Assembly: GCA_047921055.1 (NCBI GenBank)
Contig: JBLRWW010000010.1
Coordinates: 1 to 36,089 of the forward strand
Origin: Acholeplasmataceae bacterium
Lineage (GTDB): Bacteria > Bacillota_I > Bacilli_A > Acholeplasmatales > Acholeplasmataceae
Direction: 5' to 3'
DNA length: 36,089 nt
Numbering within the stretch: position 1 is the stretch's first letter; every line of letters begins with the position of its first letter. Positions 763 to 36,089 of the stretch are shown here, in pieces. The position numbers were made by a program, and so were the translations under genes. A model generated the notes under the pieces. The model was not told where the DNA came from. It saw nothing but the letters and a program-made list of their open reading frames with translations, and made no database searches.

Positions 763-766
763 GTTA

Positions 767-793: not shown

Positions 794-805
794 AGGAGTG
801 AAACT

Positions 806-7097: not shown

Positions 7098-7188
7098 TGT
7101 TTCACTCCCTTTATGGTTTTTCGAATGTATAGTATCATATTTTAATTTGAACTTAAAGATATTTGTTTCTATAAAATAAAAAAGCGCT

Positions 7189-8193
7189 CTATAGAGCGCC
7201 AATAGATCTAAAAACAACAATCGTAAAAAAGAGTGTCGCAATCGATAATATGGTTGACCAAACGACCAATTGGTTGGCAAACTTATAATCTTGACCCATC
7301 TCATATGCCATAACAACCGATGAGATGGCGACAGGTGATGCGAAAAGCGCGATTAACGCAGGGTATGCTGATGACATGTTGGGGTAATAACTATTAATTT
7401 CAAGTGCAAGGCCTAACAAAATGACAGGAATCAACACATTTCTTAATATGACACCAATCGTAATTTCTTTAAACGCCGCTTTACCACCTAAAAACTCAAA
7501 TTGTCCCCCCAAAGCAATCAAGGCTAAAGGTGATGCTGTTTGACTAATCCAAATAAGTGGTTGATAGAAAAAACTTAATTGGTTTTTAATACTAAAGACA
7601 AGTTCACCATTTTCAACAGGTATAAACGATCTTAAAAATAAGACGATAAGTCCAAAATAAACACCCATAATCAAAGGATTTTTTATAACTTTAATGAGCA
7701 GCGTCGATATTTTGATATGACCTCCGGTATCATCTTTTTGATAAATGATTAAGGCAATAATACCCAATATATTCATCACCGGTATAACAAAGGCCGCAAC
7801 CAAAGCAACCACAGAAAGTGCATTAGGACCACCAATGGCACCAGCCAGTGGAATACCTAATATAGCAAAATTTGATCGAAATAAGCTTTGAAGCAGAACG
7901 CCTTTTTGTAAATCTTGTTTGGTAATCAAAGGTACGATGAATAGTCCTATGATAAAGATCGCAACAATACCAGACACAGCATATCCGATAATTAACCAAT
8001 CAATCTCAGAAAAATTATCAATGCTATAGATGTTATAAAACAATAAGGCTGGTAAGCCAATTCTAAATATATATTTGTTTAATCCACTGAAAAAATAATC
8101 GTCGAAAAAACGAATTCTTTTTAAAAAGTAGCCAAACGCGATAACCAAAATAATGGGTGTGATTGCGTTAAATGCAAAAACAAATGTGTTCAT
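7189..8193 (-). CDS. AEC (auxin-efflux-carrier / malate-permease-like) family transporter
   Basis: 334 aa, about 10 TM, N-terminus MNTFVFAFNAITPIILVIAFGY typical of the AEC family. AAGGAAG SD. Confidence 0.8.
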   Translation of the reverse strand: MNTFVFAFNAITPIILVIAFGYFLKRIRFFDDYFFSGLNKYIFRIGLPALLFYNIYSIDNFSEIDWLIIGYAVSGIVAIFIIGLFIVPLITKQDLQKGVLLQSLFRSNFAILGIPLAGAIGGPNALSVVALVAAFVIPVMNILGIIALIIYQKDDTGGHIKISTLLIKVIKNPLIMGVYFGLIVLFLRSFIPVENGELVFSIKNQLSFFYQPLIWISQTASPLALIALGGQFEFLGGKAAFKEITIGVILRNVLIPVILLGLALEINSYYPNMSSAYPALIALFASPVAISSVVMAYEMGQDYKFANQLVVWSTILSIATLFFTIVVFRSIGAL

Positions 8194-19016: not shown

Positions 19017-20435
19017 TTAGGGAATTTCGATGATGCGCATCGTATTGGTTGACCCATGTTTTTGGGCCCAACCTGATGTCATAATGATGGTTGTTCCTGA
19101 GGTAAAACCATAATCTCTGGCAACTTCAATGGCCACTTGATCATAAAGTGCGTAATCTTTAACATTATCTCTCAGTGCTGAATGCACACCCCAATAATAG
19201 GTAAGTTTTTGACACGTCTCAATATCATCGGTAATCGCGATAATCGGCACTGATGGTCTGTATTTACAAATCCGCTTGGCTGTACCACCAGTTTCTGTAA
19301 AGGCGATAATAACTTCTGCTTTAGGTAGTGCTTGTGCAGTTTGACTCACAGCAATCCCAATGGCATCATTAATGGTTTGACCGCTCGTACTGATGAGTTT
19401 TCTTAACCGTTCTTCATAAGGAATACTATCTTCAATGGCTTTGGCGATGGTATCCATCACTAAAACCGCTTCAATTGGATAATCGCCTGCAGCAGTTTCA
19501 CCTGAAAGCATAATCGCATCAGAACCGTCTAATATGGCGTTTGCGACATCGGATGCTTCAGCACGCGTTGGGCGAGGTGAAGCCATCATGGATTCTAACA
19601 TGTGTGTTGCTGTAATGACAGGTTTACCACTTAAGTTTGCTAAAGCAATGATGCGTTTTTGATAAAGTGGTACCAGTGATGTTGATACCTCAACACCTAA
19701 GTCACCACGTGCGACCATCACGCCATCTGAAACTTTTAAAATAGATTCTAAATTGTCAACGCCTTCTTGATTTTCGATTTTAGCAATCAATTCAATGTTG
19801 GTATTGCCAGCTTTTTTTAAAATCTCTTTAACTTCTAAGACGTCTTCTTTTCTTCTCACAAAAGATAGTGCGATCATATCAACATTTTCTTTTGCAGCAA
19901 ACATAATGTCATCATAATCTTTTTTTGAAATAAATGGCATCGATAGTTTAACATTAGGGACATTGACGCCCTTTTTGCTTTTGATGACACCCGGATTATT
20001 GACGCGACATGTTAACACATCTTTTGTCGCTTCAATAACTGTCAGTTTCATTTTTCCATCATCAATGAGAATGAATTCACCTTCGTTAATATCTTCAAAT
20101 AATTCTGGACATTGAATGTGAAATCTTTCATGATTCCCCAAAACTTCTTTTTTCCACAATTCAACGATATCACCTGTTTTAAAGGTTGCTTTGCCGTTTT
20201 CAAAATCGCCCGTCCGAATCTCAGGACCTTTCGTATCTGCCATAATGCCTATAAAACGATCTTTATCTTTAGCAACTGCTCTAACGATATCTATTCTTTT
20301 TTTGTGTTCATTATGATCAGCATGAGAAAAATTAAGTCTTGCGACATTCATCCCAGCATCGATTAATTTACCAATCATTTCTACTGACTCGCTAACCGGG
20401 CCAAGTGTACATACTATTTTTGTCTTTCTTTTCAT
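19017..20435 (-). CDS. pyk: pyruvate kinase
   Basis: 472 aa. KIVCTLGP N-terminus and the MVARGDLGVE active-site motif. AAGGAGG SD. Confidence 0.95.
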   Translation of the reverse strand: MKRKTKIVCTLGPVSESVEMIGKLIDAGMNVARLNFSHADHNEHKKRIDIVRAVAKDKDRFIGIMADTKGPEIRTGDFENGKATFKTGDIVELWKKEVLGNHERFHIQCPELFEDINEGEFILIDDGKMKLTVIEATKDVLTCRVNNPGVIKSKKGVNVPNVKLSMPFISKKDYDDIMFAAKENVDMIALSFVRRKEDVLEVKEILKKAGNTNIELIAKIENQEGVDNLESILKVSDGVMVARGDLGVEVSTSLVPLYQKRIIALANLSGKPVITATHMLESMMASPRPTRAEASDVANAILDGSDAIMLSGETAAGDYPIEAVLVMDTIAKAIEDSIPYEERLRKLISTSGQTINDAIGIAVSQTAQALPKAEVIIAFTETGGTAKRICKYRPSVPIIAITDDIETCQKLTYYWGVHSALRDNVKDYALYDQVAIEVARDYGFTSGTTIIMTSGWAQKHGSTNTMRIIEIP

Positions 20436-20535
20436 GAGGTTCCTCCTTGAAACTTTTCATCTCTATTATATATCATTTTGGACTAATAATCTAATTTTTT
20501 TTAGTTCAATTGTGTGATAACGTTTTAATTACAGC

Positions 20536-20991
20536 TTATTTACGTTTTAAGGATTCAATCATGTCAAGGTATGTCTTTAAATCCACTTTTTCTAGTAATG
20601 TTTCGATGAGATCGGTAGATAATTGATCTGGTGTTTTAAATCTTAAACACGATTTACCTAAATCAGGTTTTTTCCCAAACATCGCTTTATACTGATCAAC
20701 AAACCATGTTCTGACATCATGACGATAAAAGCCCATATAGTATAAGGCAACATGGTGCTTTTGATATCCCAGATGCATCAATGGAAATGGCTCTTTTGGG
20801 TTGGCATGATATCCACTTGGATACGTTTCAAACGGTATAACATAGCCAATCATGCCATACTGAAAAGTTTCTTCGAAGCCCTCAGGACAAGCTTTTAAAA
20901 TGGTCGTTCTCATGTCAGTTAAAATTGGTTCGAGTGCTTTAGGGCACGCTTTGATGTATGCTGTTATTTCAAGTGTTTTTGATTGTTTCAT
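20536..20991 (-). CDS. DUF1801 (YdhG-like) domain protein
   Basis: 151 aa. Pattern ...ETFQYGMIGYV...LGYQKHHVALYYMGFY... is typical of DUF1801. Confidence 0.6.
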   Translation of the reverse strand: MKQSKTLEITAYIKACPKALEPILTDMRTTILKACPEGFEETFQYGMIGYVIPFETYPSGYHANPKEPFPLMHLGYQKHHVALYYMGFYRHDVRTWFVDQYKAMFGKKPDLGKSCLRFKTPDQLSTDLIETLLEKVDLKTYLDMIESLKRK

Positions 20992-21012
20992 ATGTATATC
21001 CTCGCTTTTAAA

Positions 21013-21076
21013 AGTAAAAACTGCACCTTAAGGTTAGTTTAACATAGTTATCTATGTCAGACCTTGCTGGTGCAGT
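21013..21076 (-). terminator. possible imperfect terminator hairpin after gdhA
   Basis: CTGCACC...GGTGCAG outer stem with inner AAGGT/ACCTT pairing, and an A-run at 21016-21020. Long loop, weak. Confidence 0.3.
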
Positions 21077-21098
21077 TAAAATGACGATTTAAATGCTA

Positions 21099-22448
21099 TT
21101 AAATAATACCTTCAGATACCATAGCGCTATACACTTTTAAGAAACCTGCAATGTTCGCCCCTAAGACAAGATTGGTTTCATCAGCATACTTAATCGCTGT
21201 TTCATGGCATTTTTTGAAAATGTTTTTCATAATATGCTTAAGTTTCGCATCCACTTCTTCATAGGTAAAGTAAGAGTGCATGGCATTTTGAGTCATTTCA
21301 ATACCTGAAACAGAGACCCCGCCGGCATTGGCTGCTTTACCTGGTCCAAACAAAATCTTGTGATCCAATAAATATCGTGTTGCATCTAAGGTTGTTGGCA
21401 TGTTTGCGCCTTCAGCAATCAAATAGCAGCCACCTTCAACCAACGCTTTAGCGTGTTCGATATAAATTTCATTTTGTGTCGCACAAGGTAAGGCGATGTC
21501 GCATGGTGTGTACCACATCATTGATGGATCTGAGTTGAATTTTGCTTTAGGGTATTTTTTTAAATATTGCATGGTGTATTCGCCACGTTCTTCTGATAAC
21601 TCATCTACTAATGGCATGTCTAAGCCGTTTTCATCATAGATAAAACCATTAATGTCTGACATAGCAACCACAATACCACCAAGTTCAGTCGCCTTCATGG
21701 CTGCATGCTTACCAACTTTACCAGAACCTGAAATGATGATGCGTTTACCTTTAAACGTTTCATTGCGATATGTTCTAAGCATTTCTTCAACAAAATAACA
21801 TAACCCATATCCGGTTGCTTCTTTACGACCTAGTGACCCACCAAAGGTAATACCTTTACCTGTTAAAACGCCTGTAAAATCATCTTGCAGTTTTTTATAC
21901 ATGCCAAACAAGTATCCAATTTCAAGTGCGCCAACGCCTAAATCACCTGCAGGGACATCCGTATTTGGACCAATATGACGATATAGTTCTTGCATAAATG
22001 CTTGACAAAAACGCATAATCTCGCCTTCTGATTTACCACGAGGATCAAAATCAGCGCCACCTTTTCCGCCACCCATAGGTAAGCCAGTCAAACTGTTTTT
22101 AAAGGTTTGTTCAAACCCTAAGAATTTTAAAATTGATTGATTCACAGATGGATGGAACCGTAAACCACCTTTGTAAGGTCCAATGGCTGAGTTAAACTGT
22201 ACACGATATCCGTTATTGACTTGAATTTTGCCACAATCATCGACCCACGTCACGCGAAAGGCAATGACGCGTTCAGGTACAGTGATCCGCTCCATAATTG
22301 CATATTTCTCGATATTTGGATCATGCTCAATCATCACATCGATAGACTCGAAAAATTCTTCAACCGCTTGCATAAACTCAGGCTGCATAAAATAGCGGTT
22401 CTCAAGGGTTTTGAAAACTTCATTAAGGTACTGACTTTTATATTGCAT
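21099..22448 (-). CDS. gdhA: NAD(P)-specific glutamate dehydrogenase
   Basis: GGGKGG catalytic-lysine motif (LPMGGGKGGADFDP) and Rossmann motif GSGKVG. Start reset to ATG 22448 (MQYKSQYL) after AAAGTGAGG. The track start at 22460 is GTG. Confidence 0.95.
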   Translation of the reverse strand: MQYKSQYLNEVFKTLENRYFMQPEFMQAVEEFFESIDVMIEHDPNIEKYAIMERITVPERVIAFRVTWVDDCGKIQVNNGYRVQFNSAIGPYKGGLRFHPSVNQSILKFLGFEQTFKNSLTGLPMGGGKGGADFDPRGKSEGEIMRFCQAFMQELYRHIGPNTDVPAGDLGVGALEIGYLFGMYKKLQDDFTGVLTGKGITFGGSLGRKEATGYGLCYFVEEMLRTYRNETFKGKRIIISGSGKVGKHAAMKATELGGIVVAMSDINGFIYDENGLDMPLVDELSEERGEYTMQYLKKYPKAKFNSDPSMMWYTPCDIALPCATQNEIYIEHAKALVEGGCYLIAEGANMPTTLDATRYLLDHKILFGPGKAANAGGVSVSGIEMTQNAMHSYFTYEEVDAKLKHIMKNIFKKCHETAIKYADETNLVLGANIAGFLKVYSAMVSEGII

Positions 22449-22595
22449 AGTACGCCTCACTTTGATTTATTTTTACGACTAAGTCGTTTGTATTTACCCA
22501 TAAAAAAATGGAATGCTTTTTCCCATAACCATTATATAATGAAAGCGCTTTATTTTCAATGGTTATTTTGCTTTTTTTAGGAATGTCTTCTAACA

Positions 22596-22639
22596 ACGAA
22601 AAAAACAAGCGATTGCCAATATATGGTCATCGCTTGTTT
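22596..22639 (-). terminator. rho-independent terminator after ppdK
   Basis: AACAAGCGAT-N15-ATCGCTTGTT with an A7 run at 22596-22602 (U-tract on the minus strand). Confidence 0.6.
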
Positions 22640-22651
22640 GATTGATATCAT

Positions 22652-25279
22652 TTATTTTCTTGGATTTTTAATGTTTGCGTGTGCTGCTGCTAAACGTGCA
22701 ATTGGCACTCTAAATGGCGAACAAGAAACATAGTTTAATCCGATTTTATGGCAGAATTCAACTGATAGTGGATCCCCACCATGTTCACCACAAATACCAA
22801 GTTTAATATCTTTTCTTGTTTTTTGACCACCTTGAACAGCAAGTTCCATTAATTTACCAACACCGTTAATATCGATATGGGCAAATGGATCATTAGCGAA
22901 AATCTTTTTCGTGTAGTAATCGCTTAAGAATTTACCAGCATCATCGCGGCTAAAACCAAAGGTCATTTGCGTTAAGTCATTGGTTCCAAAGCTGAAGAAT
23001 TCAGCTTCTTTTGCCACTTCGTCAGCTAAAATCGCTGCACGTGGAATTTCAATCATCGTACCCACTAAATACTTAAGTTCAACACCAGCGGCCTTAATGA
23101 TTTCATCAGCTGTCTTAACGACAACATCTTTCACATACTTCAATTCTTTAACTTCACCAACCAAAGGAATCATAATTTCAGGGACGACATTGCCGCCTTC
23201 TTTATTCACTTGAATCGCAGCTTCGATAACCGCACGTGTTTGCATGACTGCAATTTCTGGATACGTAATACTTAAACGTACACCACGGTGTCCTAACATT
23301 GGATTGGTTTCGTGTAACTCGTTAATAGTACCACTTAATTCTTCAAATGAAAGACCCATTTCTTTCGCAAGTGATCTAATATCTGATTCTGCAGTCGGTA
23401 AAAATTCATGAAGTGGTGGATCCAAATAACGAACAGTCACTGGGTAACCTTTCATTTCTTTATATAGACCAATAAAGTCTTCTCTTTGCATTGGTAATAA
23501 TTTAGCCAGTGCGCGTTCTCTTTCTTGAAGTGTCTTAGCGACAATCATTTCACGAACAGCTGGAATACGGTCTGCTTCAAAGAACATATGTTCAGTACGG
23601 CATAAACCGATACCTTCAGCACCAAACTCATACGCTACTTTCGCATCTCTAGGGTTATCAGCATTGGTTCTAACTTGTAGTGCGCGATGCTTATCTGCCC
23701 ATGACATTAAGGTTGCAAAATCGCCTGATACGGTTGCATCAACAGTAGGCACTTTACCACCATAAACAATACCTGTTGAGCCATCAATTGAAATCCAGTC
23801 GCCTTCAACAAATTTGTTGCCGCCGACAGTGAAGTATCCTTCTTTTTCATTAACATGTACTGATCCAGCACCTGCAACACAGCATGTACCCATGCCACGT
23901 GCAACAACTGCCGCATGTGATGTCATACCACCGCGTGATGTTAAGATACCAGAAGCAACAATCATACCTTCAATATCTTCAGGAGATGTTTCTTGTCTAA
24001 CTAAAACCACAGGTAAGCCATCTTTAGCTTTCAATTGTTTTGCGCGTTCTGAATTAAATGTGACACGACCGGTTGCTGCACCAGGAGATGCATTAAGCCC
24101 ATTGGCAATGACAGTCGCATTTCTTAATTCTGTTTGGTCAAATTGTGGGTGTAACAATGAATCTAATTGTGAAGGTTCAACTTTTAATAAAGCTTCTTTT
24201 TCAGTTAAAATGCCTTCTTGAACAAAATCGATTGCTAATTTAACAGCTGCTTGTGCAGTCCGTTTACCATTACGTGTTTGAAGCATGTAAAGTTTACCTT
24301 TTTCAATGGTAAATTCCATGTCTTGCATATCACGATAATGTGCTTCTAACTTTTTAGAAATGGCTGCAAATTCATTATATAATGCTTCGTTATCGTTTTT
24401 AAGTTCAGCTATTGGTTTTGGTGTACGAATACCTGCAACAACGTCTTCACCTTGTGCATTAAATAAGTATTCACCATATAATTCATCAGTACCATCAGAT
24501 GGATTTCTTGAAAAGGCAACACCTGTGCCAGAATCTTCGCCCATATTACCAAATACCATGGCTTGTACGTTAACTGCTGTACCCCATTCGTAAGGAATAT
24601 GATTTAAACGACGATATGTGTTTGCGCGTGGGTTATCCCATGATCTAAAGACTGCAGTGACTGCGCCAATGAGTTGTTCTTTTGGATCTTGAGGAAATTC
24701 TTCGCCTTTAAGTTCTAAATATTTAGCCTTAAATTGAGCAACCAATACTTTAAGGTCATTCGCATCCAAATCAGTGTCTAATTCAACACCTTTTTTCTCT
24801 TTCATTTGTTCAAGTAAATGTTCGAAATTTTCTTTGCTAATGTCCATAACAACATCAGCGAACATTTGCATAAAACGACGATAAGAGTCATATGCGAAAC
24901 GTGGATTTTGGGTCAAATCTGCTAATCCTTCAACAACTTCATCGTTTAAACCTAAGTTTAAGATGGTGTCCATCATACCTGGCATTGACGCACGGGCACC
25001 TGAACGTACTGAAACAAGTAATGGATTATTGACATCGCCAAATTTCTTACCGGTTTCAACCTCTGTGTTTTCTAATGCTGTAAAAATTTGGCTGATGATT
25101 ACTGGGTCAATGATTTTACCCTTATTATAATAATCAATACATGCCTCTGTTGTTACTGTGAAGCCTTGTGGTACTGCAATACCCAAACTTGTCATTTCTG
25201 ATAAGTTGGCGCCTTTACCACCAAGAAGGTTTTTCATTGAAACGTCGCCTTCTTTAAACAAGTATACATACTTTGTCAT
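22652..25279 (-). CDS. ppdK: pyruvate, phosphate dikinase
   Basis: 875 aa. Phosphohistidine motif GGMTSHAAVVARGMG, an N-terminal ATP-grasp region and a C-terminal PEP-utilising TIM-barrel (GICGEHGGDP). AAAGGAAAT SD. Confidence 0.95.
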   Translation of the reverse strand: MTKYVYLFKEGDVSMKNLLGGKGANLSEMTSLGIAVPQGFTVTTEACIDYYNKGKIIDPVIISQIFTALENTEVETGKKFGDVNNPLLVSVRSGARASMPGMMDTILNLGLNDEVVEGLADLTQNPRFAYDSYRRFMQMFADVVMDISKENFEHLLEQMKEKKGVELDTDLDANDLKVLVAQFKAKYLELKGEEFPQDPKEQLIGAVTAVFRSWDNPRANTYRRLNHIPYEWGTAVNVQAMVFGNMGEDSGTGVAFSRNPSDGTDELYGEYLFNAQGEDVVAGIRTPKPIAELKNDNEALYNEFAAISKKLEAHYRDMQDMEFTIEKGKLYMLQTRNGKRTAQAAVKLAIDFVQEGILTEKEALLKVEPSQLDSLLHPQFDQTELRNATVIANGLNASPGAATGRVTFNSERAKQLKAKDGLPVVLVRQETSPEDIEGMIVASGILTSRGGMTSHAAVVARGMGTCCVAGAGSVHVNEKEGYFTVGGNKFVEGDWISIDGSTGIVYGGKVPTVDATVSGDFATLMSWADKHRALQVRTNADNPRDAKVAYEFGAEGIGLCRTEHMFFEADRIPAVREMIVAKTLQERERALAKLLPMQREDFIGLYKEMKGYPVTVRYLDPPLHEFLPTAESDIRSLAKEMGLSFEELSGTINELHETNPMLGHRGVRLSITYPEIAVMQTRAVIEAAIQVNKEGGNVVPEIMIPLVGEVKELKYVKDVVVKTADEIIKAAGVELKYLVGTMIEIPRAAILADEVAKEAEFFSFGTNDLTQMTFGFSRDDAGKFLSDYYTKKIFANDPFAHIDINGVGKLMELAVQGGQKTRKDIKLGICGEHGGDPLSVEFCHKIGLNYVSCSPFRVPIARLAAAHANIKNPRK

Positions 25280-25329
25280 ATTTATTTCCTTTCTTTTTTT
25301 CGTTTTATATTAAAATCTCTTTATTGAAA

Positions 25330-26280
25330 TTATGAGATCTTCTTAACCAATTTATAAAGTTCATTCTTAGGTCTTTGTTGATCAATCACATTAACAAATG
25401 GTAAGTGAATCATGCGCGAATCTCTGACACCCACACAAACACCAAAGATACCATCATTAATTAAATCAATCGCATAAGCACCCATACGTGATCCTAAAAT
25501 ACGATCATCAGGACATGGCGAACCACCACGTTGAATGTAGCCAAGTACTGTTGCTCTAGATGTGAATCCTGATTTTTCAGTAATCTCTTTAGCAAGTTCA
25601 TGTGGATCAATAATTTTTTCTGTGATTACAACAATCGCGTGTCTTCTACCCGCTTTTGAATGTTGATTTAAACGTTTAATCATTTCTTCTTTACGCATAG
25701 GATTTTCTGGAGTAATGATGAATTCTGCACCACCACAAATACCTGCGAAAAGTGCCAAGTCACCACTGTGACGTCCCATCACTTCGATGATTGAACATCG
25801 TCTGTGTGCATTAGATGTATCTCTTAATTTATCAATGGCATCGACGATGGTTTCAACGGCCGTATGAAAGCCAATCGTAAAATCGGTACCAGCGATATCA
25901 TTATCGATGGTTCCGGGTAGTCCGATGCATTGAATGCCCATTTTGGTTAGTGCCATTGCACCTTTATATGTGCCGTCGCCACCAATCACAATTAGTGCTT
26001 CAATACCTCTTTTTTTTAAGTTATCAACGCCAATTTGACGTACCTCTTCTTTAAGAAATTCAGGCACTCTAGCTGTACCGAGTTCGGTACCACCTTTGGT
26101 TAACATCCCTGAAACAGTTTCGTGTGTCATTAAGATCATATTGTCGTTTATAAGTCCTTCGTAGCCGTCTTTGATGCCAAAAATCTCATGTCCATACGAA
26201 ATACCCGTACGCACAACAGCCCGAATGGCGGCGTTCATGCCAGGCGCATCGCCACCTGATGTTAGTACTCCAATTTTCAT
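25330..26280 (-). CDS. pfkA: ATP-dependent 6-phosphofructokinase
   Basis: 316 aa. GGDGT and PGTIDND motifs with Gly at both ATP/PPi-discriminating positions. AGGGAG SD. Confidence 0.95.
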   Translation of the reverse strand: MKIGVLTSGGDAPGMNAAIRAVVRTGISYGHEIFGIKDGYEGLINDNMILMTHETVSGMLTKGGTELGTARVPEFLKEEVRQIGVDNLKKRGIEALIVIGGDGTYKGAMALTKMGIQCIGLPGTIDNDIAGTDFTIGFHTAVETIVDAIDKLRDTSNAHRRCSIIEVMGRHSGDLALFAGICGGAEFIITPENPMRKEEMIKRLNQHSKAGRRHAIVVITEKIIDPHELAKEITEKSGFTSRATVLGYIQRGGSPCPDDRILGSRMGAYAIDLINDGIFGVCVGVRDSRMIHLPFVNVIDQQRPKNELYKLVKKIS

Positions 26281-26411
26281 CTGATTTAACTCCCTACTAT
26301 TGTATGCAAATATATTATAACATAATAATTTAGAAAGTGTAGTGACACACCGATATCTTCAATTTATGAAAACGATTTACTTTGTTTTTACCCTATTTTT
26401 TTCCTATTTTG

Positions 26412-26420
26412 TGTTAAAAT
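26412..26420 (+). promoter_or_regulatory. extended -10 element (TGnTAAAAT) for the PPi-PFK gene
   Basis: TGTTAAAAT at 26412-26420, about 30 bp upstream of the ATG, within the 167-bp pfkA/pfp divergent region. Confidence 0.4.
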
Positions 26421-26453
26421 AGAAGAAAATCAATAAGAAAATGGTGAATGTAT

Positions 26454-27701
26454 ATGAAAAATTTAAAAGGCGCTGCATTGCTTGGTCAATCAGGTGGTCC
26501 AACCAGTGTGATCAACGCGAGTGCTGCAGGCGTTTTTATTGAGGCTTTAGCCCAAGAAAACATTACAGAAGTTTATGGTGCCGTTCATGGTATTAAAGGC
26601 ATCTTAAATGAAGAGTTTTATGACATTGGAAAAGAAGATATTGAAGAATTAAAGCGTTTGAAAAACACACCTTCTTCAGCCATTGGTAGTGTCCGTTATA
26701 AAATGAAAAATCCAAAGGTCGATGATAGTGAATATCAACGTCTTTTAGAGGTTTTTAGAAAATATAATATCCGTTACTTCTTTTATAATGGTGGTAACGA
26801 CTCGATGGATACATGTAATAAAATCAGCAAGTATTTTAAAAATGCTGGCTTTGATTGTAACGTTATGGGTGTCCCTAAAACCATTGATAACGACTTAAAT
26901 GTGACCGATCACTCTCCAGGATATGCCAGTGCAGCAAAATATGTTGCAACGACATTTATGGAACTTTATCATGATGCTGTGGTTTATGACATTGAACAAG
27001 TCACGATTGTTGAAGTGATGGGTAGAAATGCTGGGTGGCTCACTGCAGCTTCTGCTTTAGCACAAGCCAAAGGTCAAGGGCCAGATTTAATTTATCTACC
27101 AGAAGTTCCTTTTGACATTGAGACGTTTTTCGCACAAGTTGATGAAGTCTTAAAAGCACGTGGCAATGTGATTGTTGCGGTTTCTGAAGGTATTAAGACC
27201 AAAGAAGGTAAATATATTCCCGAACTTTATCAAGAAAACATTAAAAAAGACGCATTTGGTCATGCTCAATTAGGCGGTACAGCACAAGTATTGGCTCAAG
27301 AGTTGTCTCAAAGACGTCAAGTGAAGGTCCGTGCGATTGAATTTAGTTTACTTCAAAGATGTGCGGCACACTTAGCATCTAAAGTTGATGTGACTGAAGC
27401 ATATAATGCTGGTCGCCGTGCGGTTAAAGCTGCGGTTAAAGGATCAACAGATAAAATGGTTGGCTTTAAGCGTGTATCATCAAATCCTTATAAGATTAAA
27501 TATGTTTTAATCCCATTAAAACAAGCTGCCAATACAGAACAAAAAGTCCCACTTGATTGGATCTTGCCAGATGGTAAGGGCATGTCACAAGCGTTTATCG
27601 ATTATGCACTGCCTTTAATCCAAGGTGACGAAAAAGCAAAATTAGTAGACGGCTTACCTCATTTTGCAGCATTAAAGAAAATACGTGTTCAAAAGAAATA
27701 A
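26454..27701 (+). CDS. pfp: pyrophosphate-dependent 6-phosphofructokinase (PPi-PFK, Pfp)
   Basis: PFK fold with GGNDS in place of GGDGS (Asp at the G104-equivalent) and PKTIDND in place of PGTIDND (Lys at the G124-equivalent). This is the PPi-PFK signature. Start at 26454 (MKNLKG) after GGTGA. An alternative ATG lies at 26448. Confidence 0.88.
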   Translation: MKNLKGAALLGQSGGPTSVINASAAGVFIEALAQENITEVYGAVHGIKGILNEEFYDIGKEDIEELKRLKNTPSSAIGSVRYKMKNPKVDDSEYQRLLEVFRKYNIRYFFYNGGNDSMDTCNKISKYFKNAGFDCNVMGVPKTIDNDLNVTDHSPGYASAAKYVATTFMELYHDAVVYDIEQVTIVEVMGRNAGWLTAASALAQAKGQGPDLIYLPEVPFDIETFFAQVDEVLKARGNVIVAVSEGIKTKEGKYIPELYQENIKKDAFGHAQLGGTAQVLAQELSQRRQVKVRAIEFSLLQRCAAHLASKVDVTEAYNAGRRAVKAAVKGSTDKMVGFKRVSSNPYKIKYVLIPLKQAANTEQKVPLDWILPDGKGMSQAFIDYALPLIQGDEKAKLVDGLPHFAALKKIRVQKK

Positions 27702-27794: not shown

Positions 27795-28550
27795 ATGATC
27801 ATATTCACAAGTAGTTCTGCCTTTTTAAATCAATGGTGGATTACCCTATTGATTGGTATTATTTTCATATATGTTTTTGCGCAATCCACTTATTTTTTAA
27901 TACGTGCTTATAAACGTGCACGCACCTTAGGAATAACAGTTGCTGATTTGCGTAAAACCATTGTTTCATCTGCTGTTTTCAGTATTGCACCATCGATTGC
28001 TATTTTAATTGGTTTGGTATTATTAACACCTGTCTTTGGCTCTTTAATTGCCGGGATGCGTTTGGCGACTTTAGGTGCATATACGTATGAGATTCCTGCA
28101 GCTACCAATGTTATTAAAGGTGTTTTTGGCCAAGAGTTTGGTGACTTCTTATCACAAGAGGTTGTGGTGACTGCCATATGGGTCATGACGCTTGGTGTGA
28201 TTCCACCACTTTTGATCGTCCCACTTTTTTTAAAGAGAATAAGTTCTGGTCTAAATGCTTTAAAACAAAAAGACACCACATGGAATCAAATCATGATGGA
28301 TGCTTTATTTATCGGGATGATTTCGGCGTTTGTTGGGTTTGTCTTGGCACCACGTACCGTCAATGGCTCAGACCCCTTTATTTCAATACTAGCTATTTTG
28401 GTTTTACTCACATCTGCTGTATTAATTATCGTCTTTGGTGTGATCATGAAAAAATACAAATGGGTTTGGCTAAAAAACTATGCCTTACCTTTATCAATGA
28501 TTCTATCGATGGCACTTGCCATCGCATATGCAAGTTTGGGGGTCATTTAA
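27795..28550 (+). CDS. uncharacterised polytopic membrane protein (about 6 TM), first gene of three-gene operon
   Basis: 251 aa, hydrophobic throughout. No motif I can name with confidence. Confidence 0.6.
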   Translation: MIIFTSSSAFLNQWWITLLIGIIFIYVFAQSTYFLIRAYKRARTLGITVADLRKTIVSSAVFSIAPSIAILIGLVLLTPVFGSLIAGMRLATLGAYTYEIPAATNVIKGVFGQEFGDFLSQEVVVTAIWVMTLGVIPPLLIVPLFLKRISSGLNALKQKDTTWNQIMMDALFIGMISAFVGFVLAPRTVNGSDPFISILAILVLLTSAVLIIVFGVIMKKYKWVWLKNYALPLSMILSMALAIAYASLGVI

Positions 28551-28551
28551 C

Positions 28552-29211
28552 ATGAAAAAAACTTATTATGATCAACTCCATGTTGAAGGACGACTTTGGA
28601 TGGTTGGTGCTTTATTATTCTTTTTAAGTGTCCCTTTCGTAATTAGTATCGGGACAGGCGTTTGGCCATCAATTGATATGTTTTTCCCCGGTTTTCTTGC
28701 GACTGCAGTTATCTTTTGGCCAGTCACAACCATTGAAGTCTTTACGTTTTCACCAATGATTGGACCAGGTGGCAGTTATTTGGCATTTGTGACTGGTAAC
28801 TTAACAAGTCTTAAAGTGCCAGCTGCTCTTAATGCTCAAGATGCGCTATCGATTGAAAAGGGCAGTGAAAAAGGTGATGTGATTGCAACCATTGCCATCG
28901 CATCCAGTTCGATTACTACAACATTGATTGTCCTTTTAGGCGCGTTACTTATTATTCCTTTATCGCCTATATTGGCATCTGAAACATTAAAACCAGCCTT
29001 TGATAATATAGTGCCTGCACTCTTTGGCGCACTTGGTGTCGTCTATTTATCTAAACGGTTATTGATTGCAGCAATCCCTCTCGTTTTTATGGCGCTATTC
29101 TTCTTATTTGTGCCAGGCAGTGGCGGCTTGGTTGGTGTGATGGTACCTGTTGGTGTTTTACTATCTTTAGGTAGTGCACGCTTCTTTTATAAGAAAGGAA
29201 TGATTGAATAA
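28552..29211 (+). CDS. uncharacterised polytopic membrane protein (about 6 TM), second gene of operon
   Basis: Start reset to ATG 28552 (MKKTYYDQ) after GGGGG, 1 nt after the upstream stop. The track start at 28516 is a non-ATG start inside the previous gene. 219 aa. Confidence 0.6.
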   Translation: MKKTYYDQLHVEGRLWMVGALLFFLSVPFVISIGTGVWPSIDMFFPGFLATAVIFWPVTTIEVFTFSPMIGPGGSYLAFVTGNLTSLKVPAALNAQDALSIEKGSEKGDVIATIAIASSSITTTLIVLLGALLIIPLSPILASETLKPAFDNIVPALFGALGVVYLSKRLLIAAIPLVFMALFFLFVPGSGGLVGVMVPVGVLLSLGSARFFYKKGMIE

Positions 29212-30644
29212 TGGAACCTTGGTTGATTGTTTTAATTGTTATCCTGTCATTACTACTCATTCTCGTTATGATTAGAACACTGAGATTTCAATCGTCTGTG
29301 ATACCGGAAATGAAAAAAAGACATGCCATTGATGAAGAACGTATTTATGAATCTTTATCACAAATGATTCAGTTTGATACGGTGAGTTATCGTGATACCG
29401 CACTCATAAAGAAAAAACCGTTTGATGATTTTAGAAGTTATTTGAAATCACGTTATCCCAATATTTATCAAGTAGCAGATTATAGTTTGCATGATGGTGC
29501 TATTTTACTTAAAATCAAAGGTGAAAACCACCTAGAACCGGTTGTATTAATGGCCCATTTTGATGTGGTGCCTGTTGACGGCACCTGGACACATCCGCCT
29601 TTTTCTGGTCATATCGATGAGACACATATTCATGGGCGTGGCACACTAGATACGAAAAACAGTTTGTGTGCCATCATGGAATCAGTCGAATTTTTAGTGT
29701 CTCACAAAAAAACATTTAAACGTGATCTATACTTAGCCTTTGGTTGTGATGAAGAAACACACGGACAAACCGCACTTAAGATTGTTAATCATTTAAAAGA
29801 AAAAGGCATTAAGCCTTACTTCGTCCTTGATGAAGGTGGTGCTGTTGTTTCTAAAGCATTTCCAGGTGTTAAAGAAAAAGCTGCGGTAATTGGTATTGCC
29901 GAAAAAGGATTTTTAAATGTTCGCTTGGTCGGCAGATCTCAAGGGGGGCATGCATCAACACCTCCCAAAGATCAAGTGATGACCAATTTGGCAAAAGTTG
30001 TGACTATACTACACCGTAAAGATCCTTTTAGATTAAAATTAACCCCAGCAGCCCATGAACTTTTTAATCATATTGCCCCTTATTCAAGAAGCTTTGTTAT
30101 TCGGATGTTTTTTGCAAATCTATGGTTATTTTTACCTTTAGTCAAAGTGATTGCTAAAAAGAGTGGTGGTAGTTTCTTAGCTTCATTTAAGACCACACAA
30201 GCATTTACCACCGCACAGGGTGCACAAGCAACCAACATTTTACCACCCATGGCATATATTGGGATTAACTACCGCTTAAGACCTTCTGAACATTCAACTG
30301 ATGTGATTAAAAGAATATCTAAGATTGCGTCAAAATATGATTGCGATGTGGAACTGGTTGATGCCAGTGAAGCCACTAAAACTTCTTTGGTAGATGATAC
30401 ATTTAAAGTACTTCAAAAAGCAATTTTAGAAACATTTACTGATGCGATACCTACACCATATTTGATGGTAGCAACCACCGATTCAAGACATTATCACGAC
30501 ATATCGGAACATGTCTATAAGTTTTCTCCAATGGATGTTTCAAATGCTGATTTGGCGTTGATTCATAGCATTGATGAGCGCATCACTAAGGCAAACATGT
30601 TAGATGCTGTGTATTTTTACATCAATTTATTAGAACAGTTTTAA
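29211..30644 (+). CDS. M20-family metallopeptidase/deacylase with N-terminal membrane anchor
   Basis: N-terminal TM helix (EPWLIVLIVILSLLLILVMI), then M20 catalytic motifs (MAHFDVVPV, GRGTLDTK, DEETHG-like region). Its ATG overlaps the upstream stop (TAATGG). Confidence 0.8.
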   Translation: MEPWLIVLIVILSLLLILVMIRTLRFQSSVIPEMKKRHAIDEERIYESLSQMIQFDTVSYRDTALIKKKPFDDFRSYLKSRYPNIYQVADYSLHDGAILLKIKGENHLEPVVLMAHFDVVPVDGTWTHPPFSGHIDETHIHGRGTLDTKNSLCAIMESVEFLVSHKKTFKRDLYLAFGCDEETHGQTALKIVNHLKEKGIKPYFVLDEGGAVVSKAFPGVKEKAAVIGIAEKGFLNVRLVGRSQGGHASTPPKDQVMTNLAKVVTILHRKDPFRLKLTPAAHELFNHIAPYSRSFVIRMFFANLWLFLPLVKVIAKKSGGSFLASFKTTQAFTTAQGAQATNILPPMAYIGINYRLRPSEHSTDVIKRISKIASKYDCDVELVDASEATKTSLVDDTFKVLQKAILETFTDAIPTPYLMVATTDSRHYHDISEHVYKFSPMDVSNADLALIHSIDERITKANMLDAVYFYINLLEQF

Positions 30645-30655: not shown

Positions 30656-30690
30656 TAAAAGCCCGATGGATGACATCGGGCTTTTTTTTA
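30656..30690. terminator. bidirectional rho-independent terminator (M20 peptidase / giant gene convergent)
   Basis: AAAAGCCCGATG-gatga-CATCGGGCTTTT followed by T8. Confidence 0.75.
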
Positions 30691-33600
30691 TGCGTTATTA
30701 TTTTTCAATAGTGAAATCAAAGATGCACGCTTAATTCTAAATGGTGCGAAATCCTCATAATCAGATGGTGCGAGCTGTGCCATTAATAATGGTTGATCTT
30801 GAATGATATCATCAATAATGTAATAAATAATAGTGTTTTCATTATCTAAGATAATATCAACTTCTTCATCTGTTAAATCAAGTATTGCTGTAATATTGAT
30901 GCTCGTTAGATCGTTGATGGTATTTACTCCTAATAAAGGCATTGATTCTGCAAGGCCTTCCATCTCAGCAATCTTAATGTCAAACACCTCTGGTACACCT
31001 GGTAGACCTGGGTCATAGTTATCAGCGGTTGTATCCGATACATGTGATTCAATTGTATCGATCTCAGAATCATTTATACCAATGGAAATCAATCGATAGA
31101 CAATTAATGATTCTTCATTAATAAGTGCTTGCAACATTGATGGTCCAAAACCTTGAGGGTCAATGGATACATCAGCAAGTGATGTGGTCTCTGGATCTGC
31201 TTGACCTGGATTTTCACCAACATCGCCAATAGTCTTAAGTGCACTGATTAATTTAACTATTTCATCATATTCTAAATCAAAGGTGTTTCTATACGCTGTT
31301 GTTGGGATACCATAATCATGTCCGCTTCTTACATCTGTTACTGACGCGACCATTGGAGTCGATAAGATATGTGCAACAAGTGGTGAGAATCCTAATGGAT
31401 AATTGACTAGATCTGTCGTTCCAATTGCAACAACTTGATCAATCTTAGCAAACGTGATTTGTGCTGGTGTAATGTTTGATGCACCATTTGTTTCTAAACC
31501 TAGAATTTCAAGCGCTTCTAAAACTGCATCAATTTCTGCACGTTTGATATCTTTCTTAAAGACGAGTTCAGTATAACTTTCATCAGGAATCTTGCCTTCA
31601 TCAAGTGGGTCTAGCGCGTCAATTAACGCGGTTGAAATCATTCTGTTTAAGATGATTGAATCATCTGGGAATTGTTTTAATGTTTCTACAGTGAGGCTAG
31701 CTTCATCAATTGTAATACTTGAAACAACAACATCATCTGCAACTTGTGGAGGTATTGGATCTGCTAATATTTCAAGAACACCGATCATAGCACTAACTTC
31801 AGAAGGTCTTAAATTATTGTTCTTATCATCATCAATATGCGCTGTGTCTGGAATTCTTTCTGCACCTAGCATATCTATAATGGTATCTGAAATCAATTGT
31901 GTGATGATTAAGGATGGTGACGCCTCAAGTTGTTTAACTTGTCCAATGGTGACATCGGTACCAACTTCTGAAACTAAGTCACCTTCATCGCCTAAAATTG
32001 CTAAGGCGTCAATCATATCTTCAATTTCATCATCAGTTAAGCGGTTATTGCTATCGTCACCAATATAAGCATCATCAGGTATATTATCTGCACCAATCAT
32101 GGTAACAATTGAATCTGTGATGATTTGCTTAATAATGACTGAATCTGATGTCTTTAACTGTTGTGCTTGGCCAACGGTGACATTTGGTGTTATGCTGCTA
32201 ACTAATATATGGTCTCGATCGCCTGGGGTTTCAGAACCCGCAAGAATTTCAAGAACGCCAATCATTGCAGTGACTTCAGCTGCTTTTAAGTTATTGCCTG
32301 GTGTATCTAATTGATATGCATCGTCTGGAACACTGCCAACACCAACTGCTGTAATGATTTGATCTGAGATCAATTTTTCAATAATTAGAGATGGTGATGC
32401 GTTTAACTCTTTGAGTTGTCCAATGTTAATATCGGTTTCAACTTCTGTGACTAAGTCTTCATCATCACCCAATACCGAAATCGCATCAATCATGTTTTCA
32501 ATTTCACTATCAGTTAATCTGTTTCCTGGCGTTGAATCAACATAAGCATCATCAGGAATATTTGCAACACCGATCATTTCAATGATTGAATCAGAGATAA
32601 TCTTCTTCATGATCAATGACTCTGTTGTCTTAAGATCTTGCGTTTGTCCAACAGTGACATCGGTTGAAATGCTTGATAATAAGACATCATCAGTAACTTG
32701 TGGTGCCACAGGCACTGCCAATGTTTCTAGCACTGCAATCATTGCAGTGATTTCATCTTCAGTTAAATTATTGTTTGAATCGCCGTCGATGTATGCCTCA
32801 TTAGGTACATTAGCAACACCAACTGCATCAATAATGGAATCAGAAATCAATCGTGCCATAATGACTGAAGGAGACGCATTTAATAGCTTAAGTTGGCCAA
32901 TATTAATGTCTGTTGAAACATCAGAAACCAAGAGTGTATCATCTCCGTTAGCTAAAATATCAATGGCATCAATCATCGCATTGATTTCATCGTCTGTTAA
33001 ACGGTTTGATGGATCGCTATCAATGTGTGCATCATCTGGAATTGTATTATCAACACTCAAACTATCGACGATTGAATCAGAGACCAATTGACGAATAATA
33101 ATCGAATTGTTAAGCTTAAGATCTTTTAATTGACCGACATTGACATCTGTTGAGACGTCTGAAACCAAGAGTGTGTCATCATCATTTGATAATATTACGA
33201 TCGCATCGATCATTTCATTGATTTCATCATCAGTTAAGCGATTGGCTGGATCATTATCAATATGTGCTTCATTTGGAATTGTATTATCAACACTTAATGT
33301 ATCAACAATCGAATCAGAAACCAATTGACGAATAATAATCGAACCATTAAGTTTGAGATCCTTTAATTGGCCAACAGTCACATCAGTTGACACATCAGCA
33401 ACTAAAAGAGAATCATCATCATTTGATAATATCACGATTGCATCGATCATTTCATTGATTTCATCATCAGTTAAGCGATTGGCTGGATCGTTATCAATGT
33501 GTGCTTCGTTTGGAATAGTATTATCAACACTCAATGTATCAACAATCGAGTCAGAGACCAATTGCTTAATAATTAATGAGTTGTTGGTTTTAAATGCCTT

Positions 33601-36089
33601 TAATTGTCCGACATTGACATCTGTTGAGACATCAGCGACTAAAAGATCGTCATCATCATTTGATAAAATCACAATCGCATCGATCATTTCACTAATTTCA
33701 TTGTCAGTTAATCTACCTGTTGGATCACTATTCTCATAGGCATCCATTGGAATTTTACCTAAACCATCTGGATCAATCGCATCAACAATCGCTTCTGTTA
33801 AGACTTGTTTGATGGTTAATGATGTGTTCGTTTTCAATTGTTTGACTTGACCAACATTGACATCAGTTGAAACATCAGCAACTAAAAGCGTATCGTCTTG
33901 ATTTGCTAATATGTCAAGCGCTTCAACCATCGCAGTGATTTCATCATCAGTTAAGCGTCCGGACGTATCACCATCGATAAAGGCATCGGCAGGAATCTTA
34001 TCTTCACCAATCACATCTTTTATTGAATTGGTGACAAGTTGTTTAATCACTACGGAAGGTAATACACTGAGTTGTTTCGTTTGACCAACATTAACATCGG
34101 TTGAAATCTCAGTTGCTAATAATGTACGATCGCCATTAGCTAATATCACAATCGCATCAATCATGGCATCTAACTCATCATCGGTAAGACGATTGGTTGG
34201 TCCACCTTCTAAGTTAAAGTTTCCTAATAAAACGTTGTTATGTTGTGTATGTCCTAAAACAAAGGCTTCTGGTGGTATATTGTCAAGGCCAATGATATCA
34301 ACAATCGCATCTGAAACCAATTGTTTGATTACAAATGACTCATTGCCTTTTAAGTCTTCAATGTTTCCAACATTAATATTTTCTGTATCGATATCTGTAA
34401 TGGCTTGTGTCTCATCACCATTTGCAAGAATCGTTAATGCCGCCATCAGTGACTCTAATTCTAAATCAGATAACACACCTTGTTCACGGTTGCCATCTAA
34501 AAATGCTTCATCGGGTATTTTATCTTCTCCGAGCGCTTGAATAATCGCATCTGATAAGAGATATTTCACAACAAAAGAATCGGTTTCCGATAAAACCTCG
34601 TTGACTTGAGCAATGGTGATGGTTTCAGGCGAAACGTTAGTGAAATCATTAATCTCTAAAATGTTAAGTGTCTTAAAGACATCTTTGATTTCTGTCTTTT
34701 TAATCATGCCTAAAAACTCACCAGCATCTTCAAATGCGCCATCTGGTAAGGATAATGTTTCTTCTGTTTTAATGGTTAAATCAATCACTGTATATAAATA
34801 ACTGGATTGTAATAATTTGTCAAGTTCAGCATCTGTTAAACTAATAATCGATGCAACATCAATATCAATATTGTTGAAATCTTCAATACCTATTTGTTTT
34901 AATCCTGCAAATAAGCTGTGAATCTCTTCTTGGGTTAAGCGTTCTTTTTCATCAATGGTGACAGTCGCTGAAACTGGTAAAACAAACTCAGAGGCTTCAT
35001 AACGATCATTGGCTATAAGATTGACAATACCATCAGAAAGTAAGAGTTGAGAAATCTTATCCCACATATATTTAGATTCTAAGAATAAATTAAAGTCATC
35101 GGTTTCCCCGGGTAACGCCTCATCATCAATTAAACCTAAGACAGTCTCAATACCAATGCCTTCTAAAGACCCTTCAGGACTTAAGAGTTTAAAGGAGACG
35201 AAAAGTTGTCGAACTTCAACGCGGCTTAATAACCCTTCTTCTACACCTTCAGTACCCACTGCATCATTTGGTGGTAACATATCTAAATCATCAAATCCAC
35301 CACCTAAAGCGCTGCCTAGTGTTTCACCTAAGAAGGAGCCTAGTGCCTCCATTGAAAACAGACGTGCAATAATAACATATAAGTAATCTGATTCTAAAAA
35401 GACACTAAAGTCATCATTAGGATCATTGACATCAATCATATTGGTAATCAGTTGAGCACCAAGTGCAGAGACATCATCTGGATTTGTTACACCTAAAACT
35501 TTAATGGAAGAAAAAATCTTTTTAACTTCTTGTTTGGTGATACGTCCAACTTCGATATCTTCATCAACACTATCCACACCTATAACGGTTGCTGGTGCTG
35601 ATAAATCGATGGTCGCATCCGGTCCTAAAACACCAGAGAGTGCACCACTTGCAATACCTGTTAGCAAGTCACCTTGTAGGAGTTCTGCGATCGAAACATA
35701 AATGATTTTTGAGTCTAAGAAACGATCAAAATCATCTTTTCCTGTAACACCATCAACATTATTATCGATAAGACCTAAAAATGCTGTCAAACCAGAATCA
35801 ATAAGACCTGATGTGTTTCCAGATGCTTCAGTAATCCCTCGCACTGATAATGTGACATCGCCCGTATCAGACACAGATACCATCAAATTAAGAATCGTAT
35901 CTAAGAAACTATTGATTTCTATTTCCCAAAGTTCATCTTCAACGCTAGCACTTAAGAGTTCATCCGGTATGGTCAAATAGGCTTCTAGTCCTAATCCACC
36001 CAAACCTTGTTTAACATTGTGTGCAATATTTAAAAACAACAAGTTTGAATGTTGATTGTCTGGCGTGCTTAAAAGGAGTTCTCTAAAAT
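30688..36089 (-). CDS. giant acidic tandem-repeat protein, probably surface/secreted; 5' end outside the window (at least 1800 aa)
   Basis: Single ORF open to the window edge. The track M at 36042 is a TTG, and the in-frame codons 36043-36087 contain no stop. Composition is Asp/Glu/Ile/Leu/Ser-rich. About 13 tandem repeats with consensus RLTDDEI.xMIDAIxIL.NxDDxLLVxDVSTDVNVGQLK.L..N.S.IIKQLVSDSIVD..G.DNIPDEAYID.D. No TM segment or anchor is present in the C-terminal 300 aa. Confidence 0.8.
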   Translation of the reverse strand, partial: FRELLLSTPDNQHSNLLFLNIAHNVKQGLGGLGLEAYLTIPDELLSASVEDELWEIEINSFLDTILNLMVSVSDTGDVTLSVRGITEASGNTSGLIDSGLTAFLGLIDNNVDGVTGKDDFDRFLDSKIIYVSIAELLQGDLLTGIASGALSGVLGPDATIDLSAPATVIGVDSVDEDIEVGRITKQEVKKIFSSIKVLGVTNPDDVSALGAQLITNMIDVNDPNDDFSVFLESDYLYVIIARLFSMEALGSFLGETLGSALGGGFDDLDMLPPNDAVGTEGVEEGLLSRVEVRQLFVSFKLLSPEGSLEGIGIETVLGLIDDEALPGETDDFNLFLESKYMWDKISQLLLSDGIVNLIANDRYEASEFVLPVSATVTIDEKERLTQEEIHSLFAGLKQIGIEDFNNIDIDVASIISLTDAELDKLLQSSYLYTVIDLTIKTEETLSLPDGAFEDAGEFLGMIKKTEIKDVFKTLNILEINDFTNVSPETITIAQVNEVLSETDSFVVKYLLSDAIIQALGEDKIPDEAFLDGNREQGVLSDLELESLMAALTILANGDETQAITDIDTENINVGNIEDLKGNESFVIKQLVSDAIVDIIGLDNIPPEAFVLGHTQHNNVLLGNFNLEGGPTNRLTDDELDAMIDAIVILANGDRTLLATEISTDVNVGQTKQLSVLPSVVIKQLVTNSIKDVIGEDKIPADAFIDGDTSGRLTDDEITAMVEALDILANQDDTLLVADVSTDVNVGQVKQLKTNTSLTIKQVLTEAIVDAIDPDGLGKIPMDAYENSDPTGRLTDNEISEMIDAIVILSNDDDDLLVADVSTDVNVGQLKAFKTNNSLIIKQLVSDSIVDTLSVDNTIPNEAHIDNDPANRLTDDEINEMIDAIVILSNDDDSLLVADVSTDVTVGQLKDLKLNGSIIIRQLVSDSIVDTLSVDNTIPNEAHIDNDPANRLTDDEINEMIDAIVILSNDDDTLLVSDVSTDVNVGQLKDLKLNNSIIIRQLVSDSIVDSLSVDNTIPDDAHIDSDPSNRLTDDEINAMIDAIDILANGDDTLLVSDVSTDINIGQLKLLNASPSVIMARLISDSIIDAVGVANVPNEAYIDGDSNNNLTEDEITAMIAVLETLAVPVAPQVTDDVLLSSISTDVTVGQTQDLKTTESLIMKKIISDSIIEMIGVANIPDDAYVDSTPGNRLTDSEIENMIDAISVLGDDEDLVTEVETDINIGQLKELNASPSLIIEKLISDQIITAVGVGSVPDDAYQLDTPGNNLKAAEVTAMIGVLEILAGSETPGDRDHILVSSITPNVTVGQAQQLKTSDSVIIKQIITDSIVTMIGADNIPDDAYIGDDSNNRLTDDEIEDMIDALAILGDEGDLVSEVGTDVTIGQVKQLEASPSLIITQLISDTIIDMLGAERIPDTAHIDDDKNNNLRPSEVSAMIGVLEILADPIPPQVADDVVVSSITIDEASLTVETLKQFPDDSIILNRMISTALIDALDPLDEGKIPDESYTELVFKKDIKRAEIDAVLEALEILGLETNGASNITPAQITFAKIDQVVAIGTTDLVNYPLGFSPLVAHILSTPMVASVTDVRSGHDYGIPTTAYRNTFDLEYDEIVKLISALKTIGDVGENPGQADPETTSLADVSIDPQGFGPSMLQALINEESLIVYRLISIGINDSEIDTIESHVSDTTADNYDPGLPGVPEVFDIKIAEMEGLAESMPLLGVNTINDLTSINITAILDLTDEEVDIILDNENTIIYYIIDDIIQDQPLLMAQLAPSDYEDFAPFRIKRASLISLLKNNNA
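31551..34479 (-). repeat. in-frame tandem coding repeat array inside the giant gene, 13 units of 228-288 bp
   Basis: Repeat unit 5' ends (first R/N codon) at 34191, 33957, 33714, 33477, 33240, 33003, 32769, 32520, 32293, 32043 and 31815. Units beginning at 33714, 33477 and 33240 are exactly 237 bp apart. They share identical stretches such as CATCGATCATTTCATTGATTTCATCATCAGTTAAGCGATTGGCTGGATC. Confidence 0.85.

Follow-up and report, generated by a model that had tools for sequence, protein, structure and literature searches.

In the size-variable surface proteins Vlp, Vsa and Lmp of mycoplasmas and alpha C, Rib, Esp and SasG/Aap of Gram-positive cocci, the tandem units typically have the same or almost the same DNA sequence, and within strains length variants appear at observable frequency. 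The ScARPs of Spiroplasma citri are plasmid-encoded. They are mollicute surface proteins with repeated domains that take part in adhesion (as cited in PMC7135369). The Vmp adhesins of 'Candidatus Phytoplasma' (VmpA, VmpB, Vmp1) carry one to five repeats, preceded by an N-terminal signal sequence and followed by a membrane segment at the C-terminus (PMC4392738, PMC7135369). In VmpA and VmpB the repeated domains are 78 amino acids (aa) long (228-234 base pairs, bp) and differ in number between strains, with recent duplications in some clusters, and the duplication or deletion of whole domains has been attributed to slippage or recombination (PMC7135369). The gain and loss of in-frame tandem modules by recombination or slippage in mollicute surface proteins is already a well-known phenomenon. 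Here we analyse a giant gene with in-frame tandem modules, for a probable surface protein, that lies on a 36,089-bp contig of a metagenome-assembled Acholeplasmataceae genome (about 36% G+C). The whole contig was analysed and is called the window below. We concentrate on a block of three 237-bp units, A, B and C, inside the repeat array of this gene.

The block is probably the product of an old, lineage-specific expansion by unequal crossover. Purifying selection has since acted on the units, the number of units drifts over species time in the gene family, and the units present are very likely correctly assembled. The elements on which this reading is based are the following.

30688..36089, minus strand: 3' part of the giant gene (1799 codons and the stop), a frame without a stop up to the contig end at 36089
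31564..34707, minus strand: tandem array made up of 13 units, each of about 79 aa (228-285 bp); a hidden Markov model built from the units gives 13 matches (P0001 residues 461-1508)
33478..33714, minus strand: unit A, 237 bp, beginning RLTDNEIS; identity to B 81.9% in DNA and 87.3% in protein, to C 79.7% and 82.3%
33241..33477, minus strand: unit B, 237 bp, beginning RLTDDEIN; a mosaic, with 46 informative sites
33004..33240, minus strand: unit C, 237 bp, beginning RLTDDEIN; identity to B 84.4% in DNA and 88.6% in protein
32909..33711, no strand: tandem repeat at the DNA level, period 237, 3.4 copies (Tandem Repeats Finder, in agreement with the shift-237 identity profile)
33440..33489, no strand: first copy of a repeat of 50 nucleotides (nt), the contig's longest exact one, across the A/B junction (exact-word scan)
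33203..33252, no strand: second copy of the same 50-nt repeat, across the B/C junction (exact-word scan)

An initial annotation of this DNA placed three units of exactly 237 bp at minus-strand starts 33714, 33477 and 33240, and our unit table confirms them. It also described the flanking units as clearly more diverged, with lengths of 228, 243 and 249 bp and with variant opening motifs. This holds as well: all unit pairs of the array other than those among A, B and C are 53-70% identical in DNA and 21-63% in protein, and neighbouring units open with NLTEDE, NLKAAE or NLRPSE. The units that directly flank the block, at 33957 and 33003, are 66-70% identical to A, B and C. In the unit at 33003 the 237-bp register continues through the first 95 nt or so only, which accounts for the 3.4 copies found by Tandem Repeats Finder; the program reported a single array in the gene, with 83% matches, no indels and a score of 1021. 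Moreover, in 14 homologous proteins and at 34 species-level loci no unit is as close to A, B or C as these are to one another; the best match there does not exceed 62%. The block is real and far beyond chance, and its interpretation as a lineage-specific expansion is supported by these sequence comparisons.

The block is nevertheless less uniform than was first proposed. Three to four adjacent units had been called nearly identical, with long identical runs and an identity of roughly 90%. The three units do form a distinct block, but their DNA identity is only 79.7-84.4% and there is no full fourth unit. The value of 90% is a protein-level figure that was carried over to DNA, so that similarity estimated from the aligned protein repeats overstated DNA identity. 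The extent of the identical runs was likewise overstated, since beyond the 50-nt repeat the exact runs shared among A, B and C measure at most 24 nt. A stretch of about 130 nt at 93-100% identity surrounds the unit junctions.

The age of the expansion was assessed from synonymous and nonsynonymous differences counted by the Nei-Gojobori method. Among the pairs formed by A, B and C, the proportion of synonymous sites that differ (pS) is 0.51-0.55 and the corrected synonymous divergence (Ks) 0.86-0.98, with 0.06-0.11 for the nonsynonymous proportion (pN) and 0.07-0.12 for the ratio of nonsynonymous to synonymous divergence (Ka/Ks). In the remaining 42 unit pairs of the array, where saturation is in effect complete, pS averages 0.64 (range 0.46-0.76). 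For calibration, two orthologue pairs of the family were used, one 88% identical in DNA with a Ks of 0.59 and one 82% identical with a Ks of 1.24. Because pS lies near the saturated background and Ks matches that of orthologues from different species, the expansion is old and not recent; it is about as old as the splits between species of this family. The amino-acid sequence of the three units is held by purifying selection, and the DNA similarity among them is mostly a by-product of this conservation, as the low Ka/Ks indicates. Membership in the same 90%-identity protein cluster was considered as a sign of strain-level relatedness and dropped, as one such pair had a Ks of 1.24.

The middle unit keeps traces of recombination. 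Unit B resembles C at positions 1-48 and 119-165, and A at positions 69-117 and 168-237. Informative sites, at which B shares the letter of either A or C but not of both, number 46; with one breakpoint placed optimally, at nt 165, 35 of them are explained (label shuffle, P = 0.004). Pairing each part of B with its presumed donor gives a Ks of 0.80 for the 5' part and 0.43 for the 3' part (0.67 overall), against 1.16 for the non-donor pairing. A run of 50 nt was reached in 0.9% of codon-column shuffles. A 38-nt run shared by B and C within the unit borders is marginal on its own (P = 0.04, three pairs tested); the 50-nt tract (P about 0.01) together with the mosaic test is the stronger evidence of conversion, and the 130-nt stretch of high identity around the junctions agrees with it. 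The mosaic structure of B fits in-register unequal crossover or gene conversion, but an old event. The initial annotation had proposed recent unequal crossover or gene conversion: the mechanism is borne out by the mosaic, the recency is contradicted by the synonymous divergence.

In the simplest scenario, two units would have become three when an A-like unit recombined with a C-like one by unequal crossover in register. The new middle unit would have received the 5' part of one neighbour and the 3' part of the other, hence its mosaic character, and later conversion patches may have been added to it. Since the crossover, the synonymous sites would have been almost randomised and the protein sequence kept by selection.

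An alternative is that unequal crossover or gene conversion has homogenised the units in recent time, the array being an active hotspot in which unit number varies between strains or subclones and is open to miscounting by short reads. We regard this as unlikely. It would account for the way A, B and C stand apart from the rest of the array, for the exact 50-nt tract and the 130-nt tract of high identity at the junctions and for the mosaic in B, but a recent event is difficult to reconcile with a DNA identity of only 80-84% and with Ks values that stay at 0.43-0.80 even when donor-matched parts are compared. The other observations in its favour come from relatives, which differ in unit number and among which one locus, L035, has units identical in DNA.

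These relatives comprise 14 homologous proteins (2500-3090 aa) and 34 species-level loci of the same architecture, from Acholeplasmataceae, Mariniplasma, Peloplasma or metagenome-assembled genomes (MAGs) labelled 'Tenericutes' or Bacillota. In the collections searched, no relative of the giant gene exceeded about 51% identity, the best ones being at 47-51%. The number of strong units ranges from 9 to 14 in the 14 proteins and from 8 to 20 at the 34 loci. Pairwise alignments of close orthologues show clean, in-frame insertions or deletions (indels) of about unit size:

P0026 and P0025: protein identity 93.0%, indel of 165 aa
P0009 and P0011: protein identity 85.5%, indels of 87 aa and 161 aa
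P0011 and P0012: protein identity 90.6%, indel of 91 aa
P0005 and P0006: protein identity 87.9%, indel of 78 aa
P0005 and P0010: protein identity 92.5%, indels of 156 aa and 79 aa
P0006 and P0010: protein identity 88.0%, indels of 78 aa and 79 aa

In four further pairs of orthologues, with 93-96% protein identity, unit numbers are the same and no indel is present, contrary to what an active hotspot would predict, and unit-sized indels occur mainly below about 93% protein identity. The 165-aa difference between P0026 and P0025 could be a deletion or a duplication: a sliding comparison with both copies favoured neither, as these orthologues are only 82% identical in DNA.

One of these changes can be followed to its junction. 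P0010 contains a chimeric unit (L001 compared with L002) whose first 93 nt correspond to unit 11 of P0005 (91-95% identity) and whose remainder corresponds to unit 12 (94%), and the switch point lies inside the conserved motif ISTDxTxGQ. Units 11 and 12 of P0005 are only 53% identical in DNA. The chimera documents an in-frame deletion of one unit, and since it joined units that are 53% identical, the deletion of a whole unit needs no near-identical neighbours. A conserved motif offers sufficient short homology, and this suggests slippage or short-homology recombination. The array would thus gain and lose whole units over the time of species divergence, by short-homology in-register recombination or by replication slippage. 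The expectation of the initial annotation that copy number changes here holds in part: unit number does vary in the gene family, but near-identity of the units is not the cause.

Locus L035, from Mariniplasma, illustrates the appearance of a recent event in the family. There, units of 243-246 nt with 100% DNA identity stand inside repeats of 80-86% identity, a pattern typical of recent gene conversion or possibly of an assembly effect in that MAG; nothing like it is seen among A, B and C. In this MAG (CAZMIG010000008.1) two identical unit pairs are found, at protein residues 1325/1485 and 2284/2444. Other lineages have expansions of their own, usually of a double unit, with periods of 480-495 bp (L003, L005, L008, L015, L035).

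The possibility of miscounting by short reads, raised in the initial annotation and forming part of the alternative of recent homogenisation, was examined on the contig itself. No exact repeat longer than 50 nt occurs in the 36 kb, so that k-mers of at least 51, or reads of 100-150 nt, should traverse A, B and C uniquely; the de Bruijn graph is unambiguous at k of at least 51. Since the longest exact repeat is 50 nt, a collapse of the units as assembled is unlikely, and the assembled copy number is very likely correct for the units present. Contig ends interrupt about 10 of the 34 related loci, so that the giant gene is generally hard to assemble, which would be in line with an active repeat; the break of our contig at 36089, however, lies in the non-repeat N-terminal half of the gene, outside the array. 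The array is an ordinary, slowly evolving one, and a hotspot is not demonstrated. Given the synonymous-site test, there is no cause to doubt the copy number or to anticipate rapid switching of protein length.

A second alternative dispenses with an expansion altogether and explains the resemblance of A, B and C by selection for the same amino acids at three positions, through convergence or shared constraint. Synonymous divergence close to the background and a low Ka/Ks are what such a process would leave, but the pS of 0.51-0.55 is still below the background mean, the three units are of equal length, and the 237-bp register crosses the unit borders into the partial copy of 0.4 unit. The mosaic and the 50-nt tract are in addition signals at the DNA level, and the relatives have no orthologous units of the A, B or C type. 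We consider this explanation very improbable. Finally, it is highly improbable that a metagenome assembler strung variants of one unit from co-existing strains in tandem, although the contig does come from a MAG and ends inside the giant gene: the difference between the units, 16-20%, is much larger than between strain variants, the reading frame is intact at all junctions, and similar expansions are present in many independent assemblies made with different assemblers.

An old expansion kept by purifying selection is thus the reading that we retain, and several points weigh against it. The Nei-Gojobori values are noisy, with only about 50 synonymous sites per pair, and strong codon bias at 36% G+C lowers the saturation level, which makes 'nearly saturated' an approximate term. 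The mosaic has four blocks instead of two, for which a single crossover is insufficient. Truly identical copies may have been merged by the assembler. The giant family is known from sequences and models alone. Lastly, if the hydrophobic stretch 81-125 corresponds to two helices, the membrane topology of the protein, discussed below, is ambiguous and the case for an outside location of the repeats would be weaker.

Beyond the block, all 13 units of the array are in frame and free of stop codons. Unit size is 76-83 aa (228-249 bp), most commonly 78-79 aa, with one unit of 285 bp upstream of the three-unit block. The unit lengths around A, B and C are 285, 234 and 243 bp on the upstream side and 234, 249, 228, 249, 228 and 249 bp on the downstream side. 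The downstream units build a higher-order pattern:

31567..32769, minus strand: distal part of the array, in which 249-bp units (NL..E start, longer first loop) alternate with 228-bp units (RLTD start); repeat families D9 and D10 spaced 477 bp, unit table

The alternation of 249- and 228-bp units gives a higher-order period of 477 bp and is conserved in orthologues. An AlphaFold2 model of four units has three helices per unit (predicted local distance difference test, pLDDT, 86; predicted template modelling score, pTM, 0.79), and the fold predicted for every unit of about 79 aa is a small three-helix module.

The product of the giant gene (1799 aa) is identical to the NCBI entry 'hypothetical protein ACNA7K_02740, partial [Acholeplasmataceae bacterium]'. 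The frame runs on through window positions 36043-36089 to the contig's final base, and alignment with orthologues places the break in the non-repeat N-terminal half, so that coverage or strain variation may have caused it; by the same comparison roughly 830 N-terminal codons, including the membrane segments seen in orthologues, would be absent from the contig. The giant proteins are very acidic (isoelectric point about 4, 16-19% Asp+Glu against about 5% Lys+Arg) and have no Cys. Full-length orthologues (2500-3200 aa) carry four or five hydrophobic segments at the N-terminus, the last of them preceded by a Lys/Arg-rich loop; a hydrophobic C-terminal segment is absent from the giant protein and from the orthologues alike. 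Because of the position of this loop, the positive-inside rule, applied to the orthologue N-termini only, probably puts the acidic repeat part, 2500 residues or more in the full protein, outside the cell. The giant protein is probably a membrane-anchored, extended acidic fibre on a wall-less cell, a spacer or an adhesin, whose length is set by the number of modules. It can reasonably be proposed as the principal surface fibre or adhesin of these cells.

We did not find a described relative. Scans of the giant protein and three full-length orthologues against Pfam and NCBIfam gave nothing above threshold; the best Pfam match was RHH_9, below threshold at 21.8 bits against a cutoff of 23.4, and NCBIfam gave none. 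A sequence search of the PDB detected no relative (best E = 0.58), nor did Foldseek detect a fold match in the PDB (best E = 0.58), and in the literature, supplements included, no description of the giant repeat family was found. An exhaustive search with the unit profile among 1.84 billion proteins returned 132 cluster representatives; a word-indexed search gave two short fragments only. The representatives inspected, about 25 of the 132, are all acidic, and the named ones come from Acholeplasmataceae, Izemoplasmatales or Bacillota MAGs; the distant named ones, from Izemoplasmatales and Bacillota MAGs, are all labelled hypothetical. In the cluster of P0014 (JGI), a diverged member of the family, 8 of 8 members are called 'transposase' by the source, a label to which the sequence gives no support. 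The giant acidic repeat proteins are an undescribed family, widespread in free-living wall-less Bacilli, without a curated domain model or structural relative.

On the downstream side the gene is followed by a putative terminator:

30657..30685, no strand: hairpin with a 12-bp stem and T runs on either strand (the terminator scan gave 2 sites, where 0.2 were expected)

This hairpin, likely a bidirectional terminator, separates the stop codon of the giant gene (30688) from the end of a convergent M20 peptidase gene (30644). A search for exact copies of this peptidase returned no record. Synteny was judged only for loci with flanks fetched. The order giant gene, M20 peptidase, a protein of about 230 aa without any family, and DUF5058 (window 27795-30644) is kept in two relatives (L001/L002); a third clade (L003/L004) has a gene of the AF_0692 family in the downstream position. 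In relatives, a cation-efflux gene is located upstream of the giant gene.

Other genes of the contig can be noted briefly. To our knowledge, cyclic-di-GMP signalling is not usually associated with mollicutes; a 550-aa GGDEF-EAL protein, of the type involved in cyclic-di-GMP turnover, is encoded at window 14468-16120 (minus strand). A glycolytic, pyrophosphate-linked cluster occupies window 19017-27701, with pyruvate kinase, glutamate dehydrogenase and pyruvate phosphate dikinase, besides two phosphofructokinase paralogues of 316 aa and 417 aa in divergent orientation. The ClpB homologue at window 761-2932 (plus strand) matches the family model from position 151 on only and therefore lacks the usual N-terminal domain. 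A tRNA-Cys (GCA) at the contig start, window 50-123 (minus strand), is the sole Rfam match in the window. The open reading frames (ORFs) listed at window 5769-7316 and 7189-8193 (minus strand) overlap by 128 bp. The amino-acid permease match begins at residue 81 of a 515-aa ORF, so that the TTG start of this ORF was probably called too far upstream.

With respect to the systems described so far, the giant protein has in common with the size-variable proteins of mycoplasmas and Gram-positive cocci its in-frame tandem units, whose number sets protein length and changes by intragenic recombination or slippage. It differs from them in the divergence of its closest units, 80-84% identical with a Ks of about 0.9, and in that changes are documented between species-level relatives only. 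The near-identity in DNA (roughly 95% or more) that characterizes rapidly size-variable proteins is absent here, the best pair being at 84.4% and the longest exact tract 50 nt. The ScARPs have repeats of 38-40 aa, unlike the units of about 79 aa of the giant family.

The closest parallel is with the Vmps, which are likewise proteins of Acholeplasmataceae and of a wall-less cell, and whose units are almost equal in length to those of the giant protein, a comparison made by published unit length and architecture. Unlike the Vmps, the giant family has a multi-segment N-terminal anchor (in the orthologues) and no C-terminal hydrophobic segment, and the giant protein, with its 13 units, is about five times longer and very acidic. 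No phytoplasma genome was found among the 34 related loci or the approximately 25 profile matches inspected. By analogy, the three-helix unit of about 79 aa might be the free-living counterpart of the 78-aa Vmp domain, and the giant family of Acholeplasmataceae and Izemoplasmatales the ancestral form; we put this forward as a speculative and rather doubtful connection. Were it true, the Vmp repeat would gain a fold and an evolutionary origin, and the short, fast-evolving adhesins of phytoplasmas would have been derived from the giant membrane-anchored family.

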